From Escherichia coli (GTDB lineage Bacteria; Pseudomonadota; Gammaproteobacteria; Enterobacterales; Enterobacteriaceae): 64,000 bases of DNA. Positions within the stretch are counted from its first letter, which is position 1; each line of letters opens with the position of its first letter. The position numbers and the translations under genes were made by a program. The DNA lies in assembly GCF_003334785.1 (NCBI RefSeq), contig NZ_QOWV01000008.1; one strand, 5' to 3'. The notes below the pieces were generated by a model. It was not told where the DNA came from, did not search any database, and was given only the letters and a program-made list of their open reading frames with translations. Below, piece by piece: positions 7,907 to 59,223 of this stretch.

Positions 7907-10015
7907 TTAATTTCGGTTTCGGGTGACTTTAATCACGTCTGGCATCACGCGGATTTTGCGCATGATATTCGCCAGATGCACACGGTCACGAGCGGTCAGA
8001 CGAATAAAGGCGCTGTAGACGCGACCATCTTTCTCTTCCGTATTCAAACTTTGAATATTCGAGGTCGTGGTGTTAATTGCCGCCGTCAGGTTTGCCAGCG
8101 CACCCTGATGATTGAACATCTCCACCTTGATTTCGGTGATGAATTCCTGCGCCGTCTCTTTATCCCATTCCACAGCCATAAACTTCTCTGGCTCTTTCTG
8201 GTAGCCACGGATGTTACGGCAGGATTCATGGTGGATCACCAGACCTTTACCGGGGCTGACGTGGGCGATAATCGGGTCGCCAGGAATAGGGCGGCAGCAT
8301 TTCGCAAAGGTGATCAGCACGCCATCGGCACCTTTAATTGGCAGATGTCCGTGACTTTGGGTTGCCGGTGGAATGGAGGCGTCCCCATGTTGTAGATTTT
8401 TCGCGACCACCACGCTCATTGCGTTACCAAGGCCGATTTCAGCCAGCAGATCGTCAAGCGTTGCCAGCTTCATGCGATCCAGCTCGCGCTGAATATTTTC
8501 CTGCGGGATTTCATTCAGCTTACGGCTACCACCCAAAGCATGGTTGAGCAGACGACGGCCCAGGCTTACAGAATCATCACGCTTGAGGTTTTTCAGCAAC
8601 TGACGAATTTTGGCGCGCGCTTTTGAGCTAACGACAAAGTTCAGCCACGCGGCATTCGGGCGAGCGCCCGGTGCGGTAATGATTTCAACGGTTTGACCGC
8701 TGGTAAGCGGCTGCGACAGCGGGTAAGGCTGGCGGTCAACGCGTGCGCCCACGCAGGCATGACCGATATCGGTATGCACTGCATAAGCGAAGTCGACGGG
8801 CGTTGCACCGGCAGGCAGCTCGACAATGCGCCCTTCCGGTGTGAAAACGTAAATCTCATCCGGGAAGAGATCGGATTTAACGCTCTCGATAAATTCAAAC
8901 GAACTACCGGCGCTCTGTTGCAGCTCCAGCAGGCTTTGCATCCAGCGCTGGGCGCGGATTTGTGCGGTAGTACTGGTTTCGCCGTGCTCTTTATAAGCCC
9001 AGTGCGCGGCAACACCCATCTCCGCCATCTGATCCATATCTTCGGTACGGATCTGGACCTCAACCGGCACGCCGTGCGGGCCAATCATCGAGGTGTGCAA
9101 AGACTGATAGCCGTTCGCTTTTGGAATGGCGATATAGTCTTTCACGCGGCCCGGACGCGGCTTGTACAGGCTGTGCATCTGGCCCAGCACGCGATAACAG
9201 GTGTCAGAATCATTGACGATCACGCGGAAAGCGTAGATGTCCATGATTGAGTGAAAACGCTGCTCTTTGAGCACCATTTTGCAGTAAATCGAATAAAGAT
9301 GCTTTTCGCGACCACTGACGCGGCACGGTATTCCCGCTTCCTGCAAACGCCCTTCGATTTCAGAAAGAATCTTCTGGATCATCTCTTTACGGTTGCCGCG
9401 CGCGGCTTTCACCACTTCTTTGATTACGCGATAACGGTTGGGATACAGCGCCTCAAAACCCAGCTCTTCGAGTTCGGTTTTAATGTGGTGGATACCTAAA
9501 CGGTGCGCCAGCGGGCTGTAAATTTCGAGAGTTTCACGGGCGATGCGGCGACGTTTGTCCGGGCGAAGTGAGCCCAGCGTGCGCATGTTGTGGGTACGGT
9601 CGGCAAGTTTGATGAGGATGACGCGGATATCCTGCACCATCGCCATAATCATCTTGCGAAAGTTTTCGGCCTGCGCCTCTTTCTTATCGCGGAACTTGAG
9701 TTTATCAAGTTTCGACACCCCCTCTACCAGCTCGGCGACGCTTTTACCAAAAAGCTGTTCCATATCCTGGTAGGTGGCGGGAGTATCTTCAATCACGTCA
9801 TGCAGCAGCGCCGCCATCAGCGTTTCATAGTCGAGTTTCATCTCGGCCAGAATGCAGGCAACCGCTACCGGGTGCGTGATATAGGGTTCACCGCTTGAAC
9901 GTGTTTGCCCCTCGTGAGCATCACGTGCAACGAGATACGCCTGCCGCAGACGCTTGATTTGGTCTTCCGGCAGGTAGGTTTGAATCAGTTGATTCAGGCT
10001 TTCAAACAGATACAA
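7907..10015 (-). CDS. spoT: Bifunctional (p)ppGpp synthetase/hydrolase SpoT
   Basis: 702 aa with HD domain; start codon is TTG (minus strand 10015..10013). Confidence 0.95.
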   Translation of the reverse strand: MYLFESLNQLIQTYLPEDQIKRLRQAYLVARDAHEGQTRSSGEPYITHPVAVACILAEMKLDYETLMAALLHDVIEDTPATYQDMEQLFGKSVAELVEGVSKLDKLKFRDKKEAQAENFRKMIMAMVQDIRVILIKLADRTHNMRTLGSLRPDKRRRIARETLEIYSPLAHRLGIHHIKTELEELGFEALYPNRYRVIKEVVKAARGNRKEMIQKILSEIEGRLQEAGIPCRVSGREKHLYSIYCKMVLKEQRFHSIMDIYAFRVIVNDSDTCYRVLGQMHSLYKPRPGRVKDYIAIPKANGYQSLHTSMIGPHGVPVEVQIRTEDMDQMAEMGVAAHWAYKEHGETSTTAQIRAQRWMQSLLELQQSAGSSFEFIESVKSDLFPDEIYVFTPEGRIVELPAGATPVDFAYAVHTDIGHACVGARVDRQPYPLSQPLTSGQTVEIITAPGARPNAAWLNFVVSSKARAKIRQLLKNLKRDDSVSLGRRLLNHALGGSRKLNEIPQENIQRELDRMKLATLDDLLAEIGLGNAMSVVVAKNLQHGDASIPPATQSHGHLPIKGADGVLITFAKCCRPIPGDPIIAHVSPGKGLVIHHESCRNIRGYQKEPEKFMAVEWDKETAQEFITEIKVEMFNHQGALANLTAAINTTTSNIQSLNTEEKDGRVYSAFIRLTARDRVHLANIMRKIRVMPDVIKVTRNRN

Positions 10016-48941: not shown

Positions 48942-49763
48942 ATGTCGTGTGAAGAACTGGAAATTGTCTGGAACAATATTAAAGCCGAAGCCAGAACGCT
49001 GGCGGACTGTGAGCCAATGCTGGCCAGTTTTTACCACGCGACGCTACTCAAACACGAAAACCTTGGCAGTGCACTGAGCTACATGCTGGCGAACAAGCTG
49101 TCATCGCCAATTATGCCTGCTATTGCTATCCGTGAAGTGGTGGAAGAAGCCTACGCCGCTGACCCGGAAATGATCGCCTCTGCGGCCTGTGATATTCAGG
49201 CGGTGCGTACCCGCGACCCGGCAGTCGATAAATACTCAACCCCGTTGTTATACCTGAAGGGTTTTCATGCCTTGCAGGCCTATCGCATCGGTCACTGGTT
49301 GTGGAATCAGGGGCGTCGCGCACTGGCAATCTTTCTGCAAAACCAGGTTTCTGTGACGTTCCAGGTCGATATTCACCCGGCAGCAAAAATTGGTCGCGGT
49401 ATCATGCTTGACCACGCGACAGGCATCGTCGTTGGTGAAACGGCGGTGATTGAAAACGACGTATCGATTCTGCAATCTGTGACGCTTGGCGGTACGGGTA
49501 AATCTGGTGGTGACCGTCACCCGAAAATTCGTGAAGGTGTGATGATTGGCGCGGGCGCGAAAATCCTCGGCAATATTGAAGTTGGGCGCGGCGCGAAGAT
49601 TGGCGCAGGTTCCGTGGTGCTGCAACCGGTGCCGCCGCATACCACCGCCGCTGGCGTTCCGGCTCGTATTGTCGGTAAACCAGACAGCGATAAGCCATCA
49701 ATGGATATGGACCAGCATTTCAACGGTATTAACCATACATTTGAGTATGGGGATGGGATCTAA
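48942..49763 (+). CDS. cysE: Serine O-acetyltransferase
   Basis: 273 aa with hexapeptide repeats. Confidence 0.95.
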   Translation: MSCEELEIVWNNIKAEARTLADCEPMLASFYHATLLKHENLGSALSYMLANKLSSPIMPAIAIREVVEEAYAADPEMIASAACDIQAVRTRDPAVDKYSTPLLYLKGFHALQAYRIGHWLWNQGRRALAIFLQNQVSVTFQVDIHPAAKIGRGIMLDHATGIVVGETAVIENDVSILQSVTLGGTGKSGGDRHPKIREGVMIGAGAKILGNIEVGRGAKIGAGSVVLQPVPPHTTAAGVPARIVGKPDSDKPSMDMDQHFNGINHTFEYGDGI

Positions 49764-49815
49764 TGTCCTGTGATCGTGCCGGATGCGATGTAATCATCTA
49801 TCCGGCCTACAGTAA

Positions 49816-50289
49816 CTAATCTCTCAATACCGCTCCCGGATACCCCAACTGCCGCCAGGCTTCATACACCACTACCGACACCGCATTGGACAGATTCATG
49901 CTGCGGCTGTCCGGCACCATCGGAATGCGAATTTTTTGTTCAGCGGGCAGGGCATCAAGAATGCTCGCTGGCAGGCCGCGTGTTTCCGGGCCGAACATCA
50001 GATAATCGCCATCCTGATAGCTTACGGCGCTGTGAGCAGGTGTACCTTTCGTGGTGAGGGCGAACAGGCGCTGGGGATTTTCTGCTTCGAGGAACGCGCG
50101 ATAGTCATGATGACGCGTAACGGCGGTAAACTCGTGATAGTCCAGCCCCGCGCGGCGCAGGCGCTTATCGTCCCAGGCAAATCCCATCGGTTCGATGATA
50201 TGCAGACGAAAGCCGGTATTAGCGCAAAGACGGATGATGTTGCCAGTATTTGGCGGAATTTCTGGTTCGTAAAGTACGATGTTTAGCAT
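49816..50289 (-). CDS. trmL: tRNA (cytidine/uridine-2'-O)-methyltransferase TrmL
   Basis: 157 aa SPOUT-family [24 protein letters not shown]. Confidence 0.9.
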
Positions 50290-50486
50290 ACTGCCCCCTT
50301 AGTGCGGGGGCAGGATAGCAGAAAATTGGTGAGCAGTGCGGCCTTTTCCCCTCACCCCGGCCCTCTCCCCGGAGGGGCGAGGGAGAAAAAAAGAGTGCGG
50401 TGTCGTTTCAGAGTGAGGGAGTACATACAGCGCCGAACGGTCCCCTCTCCCTGAGGGAGAGGGTTAGGGTGAGGGGGCGCAAACGA
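50290..50486. repeat. GC-rich nested palindromic repeat cluster in the lldD-trmL intergenic region
   Basis: 8-bp perfect hairpin ctgccccc/gggggcag; nested inverted modules CCCTCACCC, CCCTCTCCCC, GGGAGAGGG and GGGTGAGGG over about 140 bp. Confidence 0.5.
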
Positions 50487-51677
50487 CTATGCCGCATTCC
50501 CTTTCGCCATGGGAGCCAGTGCCGCAGGCAACTCTTTACCCAGCCCCTGCACCAGCGAATCTTGCGTAATTTCGCTGATCGATTTCGCGCCAGTCAGCGT
50601 CATCGCCACTTTCATCTCTTTTTCGATCAGATTTAGCAGGTTAGCTACACCCGCCTGGCCCGCTGTTGCCAGCGCATACAAGAAAGCACGACCCAGCAGT
50701 ACGGTGTCGGCACCGAGCGCAATCATACGCACGACATCAAGCCCGTTACGAATTCCGCTATCCGCCAGAATGGCTATATCACCTTTCACCGCATCTGCAA
50801 TAGCAGGCAGTGCACGGGCGGAAGAGAGTACACCGTCCAGCTGGCGGCCACCGTGGTTAGAAACCACAATTCCATCAGCACCAAAACGTACTGCATCGCG
50901 CGCATCTTCCGGATCGAGGATCCCTTTGATCACCATCGGGCCATCCCAGAAATCGCGGATCCATTCAAGGTCTTTCCATGAGATGGACGGATCGAAGTTA
51001 TTCCCCAGCCAGCCGATGTAATCTTCCAGTCCGGTCGGTTTGCCGAGATAAGCTGAGATATTACCTAAATCATGTGGACGACCGTTCAGGCCCACATCCC
51101 ACGCCCATTGCGGATGTGTCACCGCTTGCAAGTAGCGGCGCATTGCCGCGTTCGGGCCGCTCATACCTGAATGCGCATCACGGTAGCGTGCGCCCGGTGT
51201 CGGCATATCCACGGTGAAAACCAGCGTCGAACAACCCGCTGCTTTTGCTCGCTCCAGCGCGTTACGCATAAAGCCGCGATCGCGCAGTACATAAAGCTGG
51301 AACCACATTGGGCGCTTGATGGCTGGCGCGACTTCTTCAATCGGGCAAACGGAAACCGTCGAGAGAGTAAACGGAATACCATGCGCGTCCGCCGCTTTGG
51401 CTGCCTGAACTTCGCCACGACGCGCATACATGCCACACAAACCCACCGGAGCCAGTGCCACCGGCATCGACAATTTCTCATTAAACAGCGTCGTTTCCAG
51501 GCTTAAGTCGGACATGTTTTTCAGAATACGCTGGCGCAGCGCCACTTCTGACAAATCTTCCACGTTGCGGCGCAGCGTGTATTCAGAATATGCACCACCA
51601 TCCATATAGTGGAACAGGAACGGCGGCAGAATGCGTTGCGCTGCGGCGCGATAATCGCTGGCTGCGGAAATAATCAT
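50487..51677 (-). CDS. lldD: L-lactate dehydrogenase (FMN-dependent)
   Basis: 396 aa [29 protein letters not shown]... Confidence 0.95.
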
Positions 51678-52450
51678 GCGTTTTTCTCCCTCGAATGCTC
51701 ATTATGCTCACCGGGCAGGCGGGTAATCCGTGCGTGGCGAGCCTGATCTTCATCGAATCGTTTCATGGTGGTGTGAACAAAACTAAGGTGCGCCATCATT
51801 GCTTTACGCGCCCCGTCAGCATCACCGGCAAAAATGGCGTCAATGACAGCCTGATGTTGTTCGGTCAGTTGTGAAAAAACCGGTGGCACCAGATACATCC
51901 GCTGACGGCTATGCTTCACTGAGGATTGCAGGACATCGAAGAAACCGCGCATGGTTTGCAGCAGCACGATGTTATGTGAGGCTTCGGCAATCGCCAGATG
52001 AAAACGAACGTCCGCTTGTGAGGCGATATCCGGGTCTTCACTTAGCGTTGCTTCAAAGCAAAGCTGAATCTTTTCTTTGTCGCCAGGTGTGGCGCGCATT
52101 GCCGCATGCCATGCGGTGCTGGCTTCAATGGCGTAGCGGGCTTCCAGAATATCGAAACTGTAATCCGGATCATCGGCCATCAGTGTTTTTAGCGGCTGGA
52201 CGATGTTTTGCTCCGACCATGTGTCATGACGCCAGCGAATAAACGTCCCGCCGCCGCGTCGACTGAGCAGCACGCCTTCACTCACCAGTTTTGCCAGCGC
52301 CTCGCGCAGTGAATTACGTGATACGCCGAGTTGCATCGCCAGTTGGCGCTCAGCGGGCAACTTCATGCCCGCTTCCAGGTTTTTTTCATCAATCAGCGCC
52401 CGCACACGATCGGCAACCTCGTCTGACAGGCGTCTGGGTAAAACAATCAT
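51674..52450 (-). CDS. lldR: GntR-family regulator LldR
   Basis: 258 aa from [15 protein letters not shown]; start overlaps lldP stop (TAATG). Confidence 0.9.
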
Positions 52451-54105
52451 TAAGGAATCATCCACGTTAAGACATAAGCCTGAAGCGTGGTGATCACGCC
52501 CACTATACAGGTGAAGATCAGGCTGTGTTTGACAGTAAAGCGGAACAAATCAGACTCTTTGCCCACCAGGCCTACCGCCGCACAGGCGATAGCGATAGAT
52601 TGCGGGGAGATCATCTTACCGGTGACGCCACCGGTGGTATTGGCGGCAACCAGCAACAGATCAGAGACGCCAATTTGTTGTGCTGCGGTGGCTTGCAGCG
52701 CGGCGAACAGGGCGTTAGATGAGGTATCCGACCCGGTCAGGAATACCCCCAGCCAGCCGAGGAACGGCGAGAAGAAGGTGAATGCATGACCGGTGTGCGC
52801 CAGTGCCAGCGCCAGTGTTGATGACAGTCCGGAATAGTTCGAAATAAAGGCGAATGCCAGCACCATACCGATGGAGTAGATGGGCAGAGCCAGTTCTTTC
52901 AGCGTGCTGCCGAAGGTGCTGATAGCGTCAGACGGTTTCATCTTCAGCCAGACAATCGAGAGCAGTGCAGCAAACAGAATGGCGGTGCCGGTGGCAGAGA
53001 ACCAGTCAAACTTAAACACGGCGGCATAGGCTGTAGCCTCGCTGACCACTGGCGGCATACGGGCAACCAGTTTATCGAGGTACGGCACCGGAATATTGAT
53101 CACCCACTCATACAGCGCGCCACCCGATGCGAACAGGGCTTTAAACGGCGGGATACTCCACAGTGTTACGGTAGCTGTCAGGAACAGGAACGGTGTCCAG
53201 GCACGTAACACCTGACCCGCAGTGTAACCGGTGTGGGCCAGCGTCATATCAACCTGTGACGCCCCCAAATCACCAAAACGGAATACACGCACTGGCTGCC
53301 AGCGTTTGAGGAACAGCGTCAGGCAGAGCAGTGATACCAGCGAAGAGATAATGTCCGGCAGCTCCGGCCCAATGAAGTTAGAGCTAAGGTACTGAGCGAT
53401 GGCAAACGAGCCGCCCGCAACCACGACCGCAGGCCACGTCTCTTTGATACCGCGCCAGCCGTCCATAATCGCCATGATCCAGAACAGCACGATAATGGTC
53501 ATAAACGGTAGCTGCCGCCCCACCATCTGACCAATCTCAAAGCTGTCGATACCTGTTACCTGTCCGGCAACCAGGATTGGAATGCCCATCGCACCAAATG
53601 CCACTGGCGCGGTGTTAACAATCAGGCACAGCCCGGCGGCGTACAGCGGTTTAAAACCCAGGCCGACCAGCAATGCGGCGGTAATTGCTACCGGTGCGCC
53701 AAAGCCTGCGGCTCCTTCAAGGAACGCGCCGAAACAGAAACCGACGATCAGCATTTGCAGACGCTGGTCAGGGGTTATCGAAAGAATAGACGAGCGAATG
53801 ATGTCAAACTGCCCGGTTTTGACCGAGATCTTATAGACGAACACCGCTGCAATAATGATCCACGCGATGGGCCACAACCCGTAGAAGAAACCATAAACCA
53901 CCGAGGCCAGCGCGTTAGCGACCGGCATTTTATAGAACAGCAAAGCCACGGCAAGGGCGATTGCCACCGTCCACGAGGCGGCGACGTATCCTTTCAGTTT
54001 GAGCTTAATCAGCGCAAAGAAGAAAAACAGGATGGGAAGCGATGCTATCAGACTGGAAAGCCAGATATTCCCGGCGGGATCGTAGTTTTGTTGCCAGAGA
54101 TTCAT
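52450..54105 (-). CDS. lldP: L-lactate permease
   Basis: 551 aa from [13 protein letters not shown]; polytopic membrane protein. Confidence 0.9.
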
Positions 54106-54177
54106 TGCAGGTCTCCTGGAGTCCACGCACATCGTGTAATGAGTCTGTTGCTCATCTCCTTGTCACACGTTGTGTAA

Positions 54178-54194
54178 AAGTGGCACTGCCAATT
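54178..54194. promoter_or_regulatory. Candidate LldR operator O2
   Basis: AAGTGG-cactg-CCAATT, one mismatch from the O1 palindrome. Confidence 0.45.
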
Positions 54195-54303
54195 GTGTTG
54201 TGTAGGGATAATGACAATGAATGGTTAACTAAATGTTATGTATTGGCAACATTGATGTGAGTTTTAATTGGGAAATTGTGAACCAGAGGTCAGATAAGCG
54301 AAG

Positions 54304-54320
54304 AATTGGTAGGGCCAATT
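54304..54320. promoter_or_regulatory. Candidate LldR operator O1
   Basis: Perfect palindrome AATTGG-taggg-CCAATT, about 126 bp upstream of O2. Confidence 0.55.
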
Positions 54321-54335
54321 CTTGTGGGGGGAGAT

Positions 54336-54378
54336 GTCTGGTAAAGAAAAGGGCAATCCTCATCAGAGAATTGCCCTT
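54336..54378 (-). terminator. Intrinsic terminator of yibL
   Basis: aagggcaat / attgccctt stem followed on the minus strand by a T-rich run. Confidence 0.5.
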
Positions 54379-54397
54379 AGGTTGTTGATCCAGAGCG

Positions 54398-54441
54398 CCT
54401 TATCTTGCCGGATGCGGCGTGAACACCTTACTCGGCCTATA
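54398..54441. repeat. REP (repetitive extragenic palindrome)
   Basis: GCCGGATGCGGCGTGAACACCTTACTCGGCCTA matches the REP family. Confidence 0.65.
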
Positions 54442-54476
54442 GGAATGTGCAGAATCACCCTGTAGATACTGTGTTC

Positions 54477-54839
54477 TTAAAACGCGGTCTTTGAAAACCC
54501 AGTCATCTCCTGCAGGCCCATTTCGCGGCCCAGTGCGGTCATTGGGTGCACAACGACCAGTCCGCAAACACTTTTCTTCAGCTTGCCCATATCAGCCTGC
54601 TCTTTTTTGGTAATTGCGCGCTGGAATGGCATCTTCATCAGCTTCTGTGCTTCTTTACTCAGTTTTTGGCTATGAACTTCACGCAGGCGAGCAATTTCTG
54701 CTTCCAGCGTGGCTTTCTCTTTTTCCAGCTCGGCATATTTGTCTGCGGCTTCAACCAGCGAAAGATCGGCCTGCTGGTGGCGGATGGCGTCCAGGCGATC
54801 GCTGAGACGTTTGATTTCGTTTTTTTCGACTTCTTTCAT
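54477..54839 (-). CDS. yibL: Uncharacterised protein YibL
   Basis: 120 aa [35 protein letters not shown]... Confidence 0.8.
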
Positions 54840-55123
54840 GTGATGGCTTCTGATAAAGATAAATTTATAGCCCCTAGTATGCGCGACCAGGTGCTTTGTT
54901 CACAACTAATGACATTGTAATAGTTCTGTAACGTAATCATTAACATGCTCAAAAACTACGCAATTCGTTGATTAATTAAGAAATCTATAGAAAAAAGATA
55001 ATAAACAGCAGCGGATGATTATTGAGGATTCAGCACGTTTTCCTTAATGTCATCTTTACCGGGAACCTAAACTAAAATTGGCGGCCGCGCATTCCCGGCG
55101 CGGGGTAATACGGAGATATCATC

Positions 55124-55333
55124 ATGGGCAAATTAGGTGAAAACGTTCCGCTTCTTATCGATAAAGCCGTAGATTTCATGGCATCAAGCCAGGCGTTCCG
55201 GGAGTATCTGAAAAAACTTCCTCCCCGTAACGCGATTCCGTCCGGAATACCCGATGAAAGCGTGCCGTTATATCTACAACGTCTGGAGTATTATCGTCGG
55301 CTTTATCGGCCGAAGCAGGTAGAGGGGCAGTAA
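55124..55333 (+). CDS. yibT: Small protein YibT
   Basis: 69-aa ORF at the K-12 yibT position between yibL and mtlR. Confidence 0.65.
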
Positions 55334-55344
55334 GCAGACGTTGC

Positions 55345-55932
55345 TTACTTTTGAAAGGCTTTTTTTAAGCTGATTTTGGAAATCAGCTCAGTCAGTGAAA
55401 GGACCATTGTTGATCGCACAGCCTGTTGATAGCGCTGAATTTGCATTGCATACAAACTGGAGTCTGCTGGTTCAAACTGTGGCGGCGGTGGTAACGCCGC
55501 CACGCAGTGCAGTTCACCAAAGGGTCCAAGGATTTCGTCGTCGGTAAAGGCGTACTCGTTGCCGTCGTGATTTAGCTCTTCACGCAATGCCATCAGCAGT
55601 TCCGCATCTTCGTATTCCTGGCGGTTAATGACGCCCAACCCGTAAATGAGTTTTAAACGCACAGAAAGATCGCCCAGCGGACCATCGCCGTCGAGTAACG
55701 GTTCTACAGCATACTTCACCGCGTAATCGTCTTTGCGGAATACCTGAAGCACCAGAAGATTTACCGCCTCGGTCAGGAGCTCGACGGCGGTGATCAGAAA
55801 GCTTCGCACGGTTTTGCCAGCATTCAGACGCTCAAGCACACGGTTTTCAAAGGCCTGGGTTTGTTCCATTGTTGCCTGCATATCTGACAATCTGTTATTC
55901 GGGCGCAGGGTGTCCTGCGCCTGGTCCACCAT
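55345..55932 (-). CDS. mtlR: Mannitol operon repressor
   Basis: 195 aa [25 protein letters not shown]... Confidence 0.9.
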   Translation of the reverse strand: MVDQAQDTLRPNNRLSDMQATMEQTQAFENRVLERLNAGKTVRSFLITAVELLTEAVNLLVLQVFRKDDYAVKYAVEPLLDGDGPLGDLSVRLKLIYGLGVINRQEYEDAELLMALREELNHDGNEYAFTDDEILGPFGELHCVAALPPPPQFEPADSSLYAMQIQRYQQAVRSTMVLSLTELISKISLKKAFQK

Positions 55933-57080
55933 TATTGCATTGCTTTATAAGCGGTTACCGCCTCGGATACAACCTCGCTGTTGGCATCAAGACCGGAAAT
56001 CTGTGCCAGCGCCGCCTGCGGACCTTTGTCAGCGATCAGTGCTGCCAGTTCCTGAGCCTGCGGATCATCTTCACTGCGGAAGTGCATTGCAGCGGCAATA
56101 CCTTCAATCAGGTTTTTATGTGGCAGACCATATTCCAGCGTACCGAGCAGTGGCTTGATCAGACGGTCGCCAGCACTCAGTTTACGCAGTGGCTGACGGC
56201 CTACGCGCTCTACATCATCTTTCAGATACGGGTTCTCAAAACGGCCGAGAATTTTCTGGATGTACGCCGCATGCTTGTCAGCGTCAAAGCCGTAGCGCTT
56301 GATCAATACTGCACCACTTTCTTCCATCGCACCTTTTACCACCGCGCGGATTTTCTCGTCGAGAATCGCGTCACGAATGGTCTGATGACCGGCCAGTTTT
56401 CCGAGGTACGCGGTTATAGCATGACCCGTGTTCAGGGTGAAGAGTTTACGTTCGACAAATGCCATCAGGTTGTCGGTTAACTCCATGCCTGGGATGTTCG
56501 ACAGTGCGCCTTTGAACTGCGTTTTATCGACAATCCATTCGCTGAAGGTTTCTACCGTCACTTCCAGCGGATCGTTAGTTGCCGAAGCCGAAGGCGGTAC
56601 GATGCGGTCAACGGCGGAATCGACAAAGCCAACGTGTTCTTCTACCCACGCTTTGGCGTCTTCCGGCAGGGCGTTCATCACATGGCCTTTCAGCTGCGTG
56701 GTACCGCGTACCATGTTTTCACAGGCGATGATGTTCAGCGGGGATTCATTACCTTGTTCTTTACGTTTCACCAGCCCTTTGGCGATTGCCGGAGCAATAC
56801 GTTCCAGCACAACCGGGCCAACGGCGGTAGTGACTAAATCAACCTGAGCAATCAGATCAACGACATCATCACCAATGCTGCTGACAGCATTGACGCCGGA
56901 AACGGTATCTACCTGCTCGGTTTCACCAACCACATGTACCTGATAGCTATGACGGGCATTCAGGGCATCAAGTACCACCTGATTGACATCGGCAAACGTC
57001 AGTTGGATACCCGCGTCTGCCAGCAGTTTACCGATAAAGCCACGACCGATATTACCTGCGCCAAAATGTAATGCTTTCAT
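55932..57080 (-). CDS. mtlD: Mannitol-1-phosphate 5-dehydrogenase
   Basis: 382 aa from [15 protein letters not shown]; the 488-aa track ORF reads through the upstream repeat region. Confidence 0.95.
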
Positions 57081-57084
57081 AGTA

Positions 57085-57309
57085 TTAACCTTCATCAATG
57101 TTTTTACCCGAGAGGGCTGGGGTGAGGCTTTTCCCTCACCCAAACCCTCTCCGTGAGGAGAGGGGCAGCGCCGGATGCGGCGTAAGCGCCTTATCCGGCC
57201 TACAAGAACGTGCAAATTCAACAAATTGTGATGCATCCTGTAGGCCTGATAAGCGTAGCGCATCAGGCAATTAACCCCACCTTCTCCATGTGGAGAGGGT
57301 GGGATTGGA
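57085..57309. repeat. BIME-type repeat cluster between mtlA and mtlD
   Basis: Two opposed REP units (GCCGGATGCGGCGTAAGCGCCTTATCCGGCCTAC and TGTAGGCCTGATAAGCGTAGCGCATCAGGC) flanked by GGGTGAGG/CCCTCACCC and CCCTCTCC/GGAGAGGG hairpin modules. Confidence 0.75.
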
Positions 57310-59223
57310 TTACTTACGACCTGCCAGCAGTTCCAGCACTTCATCCACGCTGGTGGTGTGTGCCAGACGCTCGATGACGGACTCATCATCCAGTGCATTG
57401 GTCAGGCTGGTGATAACCTGAATGTGCTCGTTGTTACGGGCAGCAATACCAATCACCAGACGGGCAATGTCATCTTCTTCTTCACCGAAGCGCACGCCTT
57501 CCGGGTACTGGCAGAACACGACGCCCGTTTTCAGTACGCGATCTTTCGCTTCAACCGTACCGTGTGGCACCGCGATAGACTCACCCAGATAAGTCGGGGT
57601 CAGTTTTTCACGATCCAGCATCGCCTGAACGTATTCCGGCTCAACGTAACCGCCTTTCACCAGCTGCTCGCCAGCAAAACGAATCGCTTCTTCTTTGGTT
57701 GCCGCTTTGCGACCGAGGAAGATGTTCTCCGCGCCTAGCTTGAACAGGTTAGCACTGGAATCGTCAAAGCTGTCTTTCAGGCTGTCTTTTACTTTCTCTT
57801 CGTTTGCCGTGTGGCGTTGGGCAGCAACCAGACGTTCGGTCAGGCTGGTGTACAGGCCGCTGTCGAGGAAGTTGGTCAGCGAAATATGCTGTGCCTGCGG
57901 AACCTGGCGCATAGCGCGTTCGGTCAGGTCACGGTGAGTGATGACGAGGTCCACATCTGGCGGCAGGTTGTTGATCGCGCTGTTAGTAACAGAAATCTGC
58001 GACAGACCTGCATCCTGAATTTTCTTACGCAGAACGCCTGCGCCCATCGCACTGGAACCCATACCGGCGTCACAGGCAACGATGATTTTACGTACGTGGC
58101 TCAGGTCGTTAGTCACATCGCCAGCAGACAGCGGAGATGCGCCTTTAGACTCAGCTTTCATGTCCTGCATACGACGAGTTGCTGCTTCAATATCATCTTC
58201 TTCTTTCACTTTGCTGGTTTTCAGCAAAATAGCAGAGACAACGAAGGAGACAGCCATCGCCGCACACACACCCGCGATGTTAGCGAAGTAAGCACCTTTT
58301 GGTGTCATCGCCAGTACAGCAAGGATAGAACCCGGAGATGCCGGAGAAACCAGACCACCGCCCAGGATAGTCAGCGTGAACACGCCAGTCATACCGCCGA
58401 GGATGACTGCGAGGATCAGACGCGGATTCATCAGCACATACGGGAAGTAGATTTCGTGGATACCCCCCAGGAAGTGGATGATTGCCGCACCGCCCGCAGA
58501 CTGTTTAGCGCTACCACGACCAAAGAACATGTACGCCAGCAGCACGCCCATACCTGGACCTGGGTTAGCTTCAATCAGGAAGAAGATTGATTTACCCAGT
58601 TCATGGGACTGCTGAATACCCAGCGGCGAGAAGATACCGTGGTTAATGGCGTTGTTGAGGAACAGGATTTTCGCCGGTTCAACAAAGATAGACGCCAGCG
58701 GCAGCATGTCATGGACAACCATGAAGTTAACGCCCGCAGCCAGCATTTTGGACAGGGCTTCAACAATCGGGCCAATGCCGAGGAATGCCAGAATAGCGAG
58801 GATCATCCCGATGATGCCTGCGGAGAAGTTATTCACCAGCATCTCAAAACCGGATTTGATCTTACCGTCTACCCAGCGGTCGAAGTGCTTAATGCACCAG
58901 CCGCCCAGCGGACCTGCAATCATAGAACCGAGGAACATCGGCATGTCTGCGCCGACGATAACGCCCATGGTGGTGATGGCACCGACTACGCCGCCACGTT
59001 CGCCGCCTACCAGCTTACCACCGGTATAACCGATCAGCAGCGGCAGGAGATAAGTGATCATCGGCCCGACCAGCTTCGCCAGCGTCTCGTTCGGTAACCA
59101 CCCTGTTGGAATAAATAACGCGGTGATGATACCCCACGCGATAAACGCGCCGATATTTGGCATCACCATGTTGCTGAGGAAACGACCAAAGCTTTGCACT
59201 TTGATCTTAATATCGGATGACAT
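57310..59223 (-). CDS. mtlA: PTS mannitol-specific EIICBA
   Basis: 637 aa [32 protein letters not shown]... Confidence 0.95.

Follow-up and report, generated by a model that had tools for sequence, protein, structure and literature searches.

The GC-rich palindromic modules in the spacer between lldD and trmL of Escherichia coli are BoxC repeats, which belong to a family of repeats of roughly 36–56 bp that lie between genes on the chromosomes of E. coli and related Proteobacteria, and they had already been catalogued at exactly this spacer. The account that best explains the observations as a whole, and which is very probably correct, has three parts: the modules are BoxC, their pair at lldD-trmL is a dispensable passenger that rearranges, and the copy between mtlA and mtlD is an old and conserved one for which a local role is suggested. 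The lldD-trmL finding is already known, the family having been described in 1992 and the spacer catalogued in 2015 and 2016, and it therefore adds little. The conservation of the mtl copy is a modest new lead.

The window, that is the whole stretch of 64 kb that was analysed, is K-12-like E. coli DNA and runs as the reverse complement of MG1655 around 3.77–3.78 Mb. The genes trmL (49816-50289), lldD (50487-51677), mtlD (55932-57080) and mtlA (57310-59223) are all coded on its minus strand. The lldD-trmL spacer (50290-50486) measures 197 nt and the mtlA-mtlD spacer 229 nt; both are intergenic. ORFs of 22–78 aa in the lldD-trmL spacer are mechanical, of low complexity and overlap the repeats. 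The nested inverted repeats described there by the first-pass annotation were recovered with a repeat finder: 22-nt arms at 50348-50369 / 50455-50476 (complementarity 86%), an inner perfect 10-nt hairpin at 50443-50452 / 50454-50463, and the tandem 12-mers CCCTCACCCCGG / CCCTCTCCCCGG. The strict BoxC/TMECO pattern CCCTCNCCC-N3-6-GGGNGAGGG-N3-GGGNGAGGG matches the 64-kb window only at 50349-50383 (minus strand) and 50443-50475 (plus strand), and it has no match in 100 dinucleotide-preserving shuffles of the window. The word GGGWGAGGG occurs six times in the window, against 0.43 expected, with all six occurrences in the lldD-trmL and mtlA-mtlD spacers. The two lldD-trmL units are also the sole canonical G4 motifs of the window.

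The type A unit lies on the plus strand at 50443..50476, starting 11 nt past the lldD stop codon, and reads CCCTCTCCC-TGA-GGGAGAGGG-TTA-GGGTGAGGGG, where TTA (50464-50466) is the second loop. The other unit, on the minus strand at 50348..50383, is of type B with one mismatched triplet; it reads CCCTCGCCCC-TCCG-GGGAGAGGG-CCG-GGGTGAGGGG, its second loop CCG being at 50358-50360. Both assignments rest on the pattern match, the published catalogues and the canonical G4 motif. The type B unit continues on the minus strand into a 3' tail (50322..50347, AAAAGGCCGCACTGCTCACCAATTTT), recognized by eye in comparison with four other K-12 pairs, which is homologous to the tail common to other K-12 BoxC copies (about AACAGGCCAGCACTGGTGCGAA). 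A 59-nt segment (50384..50442) separates the two units and holds the 5' flanks of both: the A7 at 50386-50392 (plus strand) is the T-rich run that precedes type B units, and the type A flank is ...CGAACGGTC. The MG1655 RefSeq annotation has no repeat features across the lldD-trmL region, and an Rfam search in E-value mode of 49500-58000 found nothing at the BoxC modules.

BoxC reportedly goes back to Bergler in 1992 and the surveys of Bachellier, and the PIT elements to Hoyne et al. in 2000. Holder et al. 2015 (PMC4666352), who treat the motif as an intrastrand triplex motif under the name TMECO, count 23 of them in MG1655 and equate the motif with BoxC, its first description, and with the later PIT elements. 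Row 17 of their Table 1 (TMECO 17, type A, MG1655 3,781,061-3,781,028, minus strand) is identical in sequence to the unit at 50443..50476, and row 18 (TMECO 18, type B with one mismatched triplet, 3,781,121-3,781,156, plus strand) to the unit at 50348..50383; Supplementary Table S2 of the same paper places both between lldD and trmL (PMC4666352). Kaplan et al. 2016 (PMC5100583) give the same units as the G4 motifs HPG1-43 (3781038, minus) and HPG2-44 (3781145, plus). The locus had thus been entered in catalogues under four names. In Petrillo et al. 2008, BoxC appears as a known family of E. coli, with 56 bp and 32 copies. The first-pass annotation had named Box C for comparison and had considered a small repeat family distinct from REP; the strict pattern match and the catalogues bear this out. 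The HPG names represent another structural reading of the same sequence, as a G-quadruplex-hairpin-duplex switch, and two features that Kaplan et al. report as conserved, C-rich sequence on the 5' side and a T-rich run ahead of HPG2, are present at lldD-trmL too (PMC5100583).

The lldD-trmL units share with TMECO/BoxC elements the exact pattern, the intergenic location, the arrangement as an inverted A and B pair, and a locus that varies between strains as Holder et al. report. Their arrangement, with one A and one B unit on opposite strands, agrees with the published rule for paired units, by which the second loop is TTA (type A) or CCG (type B) and each pair has one of each on opposite strands. 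Conserved flanks common to the four other K-12 pairs extend beyond the 36-nt core: the 5' flank ends in GTC (type A) or in a T-run (type B), and the G-G end is followed by a tail of about 22 nt, which accounts for the 56-bp length of BoxC. Each of those four pairs has its G-G ends turned toward one another, with a shared tail of 16–27 nt between them. The lldD-trmL pair, alone of the five K-12 pairs, has its C-stem hairpins inward and its G-G ends and tails outward, and its gap is 59 nt instead of 16–27 nt (from the strands in Holder Table 1 and the four fetched pairs).

The family is present genome-wide and is not confined to the two spacers. The genome-wide search that had been proposed as a check was run with the 36-nt type A consensus (word-11 BLAST) and gave 77,957 places, spread over 5,409 of the 5,426 complete E. 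coli genomes, with a median of 15 BoxC copies per genome (range 1–29) and only 46 of the places on plasmids. Salmonella reportedly has no TMECO motifs. Megablast with the whole lldD-trmL spacer recovers the orthologous locus only; it is blind to the other copies because members of the family have no 28-mer in common, hence the choice of word 11. The strict TMECO pattern is also found on at least 120 IMG/VR contigs classed as viral, of 32–74% G+C and with many variants of the second loop (TTG, TTA, CCG, CTG). These occurrences, in which phage DNA and host flank are not distinguished, fit uneasily with the published statement that the motif has no phage association.

Five alleles of the lldD-trmL spacer exist in E. 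coli; those of 197, 185, 153, 72 and 47 nt were counted 7, 8, 4, 3 and 7 times, respectively, together with one partial match, in an evenly spaced sample of 30 genomes. The 197-nt allele is the K-12 form. The 185-nt allele, as in O157, differs from it by the exact loss of one tandem 12-mer. The centre of the 153-nt allele, corresponding to the inter-unit segment (50384..50442), has given way to a palindrome of 35 nt, in which two IS50 inside-end-like sequences are joined. The 72-nt allele keeps the last G block and the type B tail only, and the 47-nt allele, found also in E. albertii and in the GTDB representative of E. coli, keeps the GGGTTAG remnant only. The pair is missing in about a third of E. 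coli genomes. Among other genera with lldD upstream of trmL, Kluyvera and Pseudocitrobacter have a pair in the spacer, and others have one unit, remnants or nothing. The series shows the lldD-trmL pair to be dispensable and prone to rearrangement, probably as a passenger, and it agrees with the variable surroundings of TMECO sites described by Holder et al. (PMC4666352).

The breakpoints between alleles fall within the repeated C/G blocks. Their position suggests that the variation may come from replication slippage and from recombination between the element's own repeated blocks, which hairpin formation would help; one allele would owe its centre, in addition, to an IS-related insertion scar. 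The series is not polarised on a strain phylogeny, so that gains and losses are separable only through the outgroup hint given by E. albertii. Note, as a caveat to the reading of the pair as a passenger, that BoxC units or remnants adjoin the trmL promoter in several genera, in two of which the upstream gene is other than lldD; the unit on the trmL side could be more than a mere passenger. The five-allele natural series, drawn from about 5,400 genomes, allows isogenic tests of the effect of the pair.

Further sequences were noted at this locus. The centre of the pair in the E. coli Res13 allele (locus positions 229-263) is CTGTCTCTTGATCAG-GAGAT-CTGATCAAGAGACAG, two IS50/Tn5 inside-end-like sequences back to back, which resemble a scar left by an IS or else a minimal MITE. 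With a query of 44 nt, matches of at least 80% coverage are found in 1,357 genomes, some of them under annotations of IS4-family transposases. The lldD-trmL spacer of Pseudocitrobacter faecalis (9808-9921) holds two tandem partial copies of about 45 nt (gtcCCCTCTCCCtcagggagaaaaccctcaccatgcacgacct) between its BoxC units, a local amplification of half a unit. Pluralibacter gergoviae (about 240-260) carries GTGTATAAGAGACAG, identical to the Tn5 outside/mosaic end core, about 85 nt upstream of trmL; this could be an IS remnant or a sequencing-adaptor artefact of the assembly.

The second copy lies in the mtlA-mtlD spacer. The claim that the same modules recur there beside REP is upheld at the level of the family, by a relaxed pattern, by the architecture and by comparison across species. 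The BoxC-like module occupies 57110..57165 on the minus strand, ends 29 nt before the mtlD ATG (57078-57080) and reads on the mRNA strand CCCTCTCC-TCAC-GGAGAGGG-TTT-GGGTGAGG-GAAAAG-CCTCACCC-CAG-CCCTCTC, with stems of 8 nt. The strict BoxC/TMECO pattern has no match in it. A relaxed pattern of two G blocks finds 57133-57153 (minus strand, one mismatch) and 57108-57128 (plus strand, three mismatches) in the spacer, whose hairpins are at 57145-57152 / 57157-57164 and 57273-57288 / 57291-57306. Its architecture, C-loop-G-TTT-G followed by a complementary C-CAG-C, and the TTA-loop versions that other genera have at this site mark the module as a degenerate relative of BoxC. It differs from BoxC/TMECO elements by its 8-nt stems and TTT loop and by being conserved rather than unstable, and from HPG1/HPG2 by having no four G3 runs, which puts it outside the HPG definition. 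The module was found neither in Table 1 and Supplementary Table S2 of Holder et al. nor in the table of Kaplan et al., and a literature search on the mtlA-mtlD intergenic region returned nothing relevant.

Including E. coli, 14 species were compared at their fetched mtlA-mtlD junctions; the 13 others all have this element where E. coli has it, and it always precedes mtlD by a fixed distance. These species were picked by TrmL similarity and not by BoxC content, so the conservation is no ascertainment effect. Pairwise identity is 0.91 in the G blocks and 0.94 in the C blocks, against 0.45 in the loop between them and 0.56 at a neutral yardstick of 52 four-fold degenerate sites (mtlD codons 1-120). 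The helix is 99% paired and almost invariant; one pair is changed on both sides, which is equalled by 38 of 500 shuffles, and with blocks so nearly invariant covariation says little. An orthologous copy far more conserved than neutral sites does not suit the general view that these motifs do no more than cause instability. That this copy has gained a local role is suggested by its conservation, an intercistronic mRNA structure being the most plausible one, with the caveat that the conservation could stem from gene conversion by other copies of the family and not from local selection. We put forward as possible rather than probable that the mtl BoxC is an intercistronic structure under purifying selection across genera of the Enterobacteriaceae, which would determine how strongly the mtlA part of the transcript is expressed, or how stable it is, relative to the mtlD-mtlR part. 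BoxC elements would thereby receive their first assigned function; we know of no copy for which a function was shown by experiment.

A BoxC unit consists of one C block followed by two G blocks, with a loop between the C block and the first G block, a 3-nt loop between the two G blocks, and conserved flanks; a single strand of it can therefore take either of two alternative hairpins. Single units folded as DNA are modestly better than shuffles (z -1.4 to -2.2), since the C block pairs with either G block. The RNA folding proposed earlier as a check was carried out: together the two lldD-trmL units can form one long composite hairpin, the predicted fold of the spacer RNA having -94.3 kcal/mol and z -4.2, and the mtl spacer reaches z -9.6.

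It has been proposed that the modules act in RNA, as terminators or as 3'-end hairpins that shield the lldPRD or mtlA mRNA from exonucleases, in the way that REP shields the upstream mRNA in malE-malF. Such action is rather unlikely, even with strong predicted hairpins at two sites that are both immediately 3' of a coding region on the transcribed strand, and with an mtl copy whose conservation, like its fixed distance from mtlD, extends across genera. A stem that leads into a U-run is absent from the transcribed strand of both spacers, and promoter and terminator scans found nothing on this (minus) strand in the lldD-trmL or the mtlA-mtlD spacer. The U7 run at 50386-50392 belongs to the type B unit as its conserved 5' flank, and only a weak, long-looped stem precedes it. 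The BoxC family shows no bias of orientation or position relative to genes, and the lldD-trmL pair is dispensed with by many E. coli genomes, as seen above, and by E. albertii. Terminator and promoter activity were not found for PIT elements by Hoyne and Maher 2002, as summarised in PMC4666352. The terminator role suggested by the first-pass annotation thus lacks support, and the lldD-trmL pair is not an intrinsic terminator. Its effect there, if any, would be at most that of a passive RNA hairpin ending the lldPRD transcript just upstream of trmL's own promoter.

A further proposal is that of Kaplan et al. 2016 (PMC5100583), which Holder et al. 2015 (PMC4666352) also considered: as non-B DNA, whether hairpin, triplex or G-quadruplex, the modules would be switches that regulate replication or the genes next to them. 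It draws on the restriction of canonical G4 motifs in the window to the lldD-trmL units, on the position of one unit directly upstream of the putative trmL promoter, and on published CD and NMR data by which BoxC-type oligonucleotides of four consensus types fold in vitro as a purine-motif triplex or a G-quadruplex (PMC4666352, PMC5100583). A triplex signal was absent in the work of Holder et al. both from double-stranded DNA and, by DMS footprinting, in vivo (PMC4666352), which leaves a DNA-structure route to instability unproven. Added to this, the flanking genes obey no rule of functional class or distance, the lldD-trmL pair is dispensable within E. coli, and the conserved mtl copy, with stems of only 8 nt, is not a G4 motif; a switch of this kind is quite improbable.

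A view of the modules as non-autonomous mobile elements, either similar to MITEs or moved by way of their hairpins as REP is by a RAYT-type enzyme, with the alleles arising by insertion and excision, likewise has little probability. Copy numbers from 1 to 29 between strains, a lldD-trmL spacer that is filled or empty across strains and genera, the inverted arms of the pair and the IMG/VR occurrences of the strict pattern would all suit mobility. The comparison of filled and short alleles, at this one site, reveals no clean target-site duplication and no precise empty site, and plasmids carry hardly any of the copies. The short alleles retain BoxC remnants (GGGTTAG, or the last G block and tail), as expected of deletions. 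To our knowledge, no transposase is associated with BoxC. The 47-nt allele was considered as a clean empty site and rejected: it keeps GGGTTAG and a tail-like end, which by eye resembles a BoxC remnant.

The suggestion of the first-pass annotation that the modules may be BIME accessory motifs, that is extra-REP parts of REP mosaics, is scarcely credible: the modules do flank a genuine REP pair in the mtlA-mtlD spacer, but they stand outside this pair and not between its units, no REP core occurs in 50290-50486 (those of the window are at 49778, 54407 and 57170) or within about 300 nt of the four other K-12 BoxC pairs, and the mtl BoxC is kept without any REP in the O157 allele and in several genera. 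The absence of a REP unit from the lldD-trmL spacer already means that the modules there are not BIME accessory motifs. This assessment is made by position relative to REP units. BoxC and REP/BIME, side by side in the mtl spacer, have in common that they are short, GC-rich, palindromic, intergenic, multi-copy, transcribed within operons and variable in number between strains; BoxC differs by its distinct consensus, its number of about 15 copies per genome and its occurrence without REP. We know of no RAYT-type partner, IHF site or gyrase site for BoxC.

The REP cluster (BIME) of the mtl spacer spans 57167..57268, its two inverted REP units (57167-57207 and 57236-57268) being separated by a 28-nt segment; the assignment is based on inverted repeats, the REP core at 57170 and a sub-threshold Rfam match to naRNA4. 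E. coli has mtl spacer alleles of 94 nt (BoxC only), 229 nt (two REPs) and 319, 419 and 520 nt (four, six and eight REPs), and the BoxC core is identical across the five. In the 94-nt allele of O157, TAATCCAATCCTA-CCCTCTCC is joined directly to TCAC-GGAGAGGG. The K-12 form is this 94-nt form plus 135 nt, bounded by two copies of CCCTCTCC. A further hairpin, CCCACCCTCTCCA-CA-TGGAGAAGGTGGG (57273..57306, minus strand), is found just after the mtlA stop codon and is separated from the first BoxC hairpin by the REP cluster; from the position of the 135 extra nt between the two copies of CCCTCTCC, it is a diverged partial duplicate of that first hairpin. The alleles suggest that the mtl BoxC is an old resident beside which REP or ERIC elements were inserted, the REP cluster being a variable guest. 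A resident BoxC with a variable REP cluster is the opposite of the accessory-motif idea. These natural alleles, with 0 to 8 REPs beside an unchanged BoxC, are ready-made test material.

An element that by eye looks like an ERIC-type repeat occupies the space from the mtlA stop codon to BoxC in Citrobacter werkmanii, C. youngae and strain RIT691. Elsewhere in the window, sub-threshold Rfam matches to the REP-derived naRNA4 coincide with REP units at 54397-54437 (minus strand, yibL-lldP region) and 49772-49807 (minus strand, trmL-cysE spacer), and STnc380 has a sub-threshold match at 54279-54387 (plus strand; 36.4 bits, with a gathering score of 60).

The trmL leader region forms the conserved edge of the variable lldD-trmL spacer. 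It comprises on the minus strand (50286-50321) a putative extended -10 of trmL, TGCTATCCT at 50312-50320, followed by an inverted repeat that is not part of BoxC, the leader hairpin CTGCCCCC/GGGGGCAG, which includes the Shine-Dalgarno sequence just before the ATG (50287-50289). Rfam has no match for this hairpin. In 45 Enterobacterales, TGCTAT(N)CT followed directly by a GC-rich hairpin is found upstream of trmL, whatever the upstream gene. TGCTAT(N)CT resembles an extended -10 and probably serves as promoter. The 3' arm of the hairpin holds the Shine-Dalgarno sequence and ends 1–10 nt before the ATG, and the stems differ by taxon (CUGCCCCC/GGGGGCAG, CGGCCCUC/GAGGGCUG, GCGUCCCU/GGGGGACGC). RNAalifold predicted no pairs on the alignment of the leader, since alignment by sequence puts the stems out of register. 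Folding was hence done on single sequences, and by this measure the leader folds in all 45, with a mean z of -3.7.
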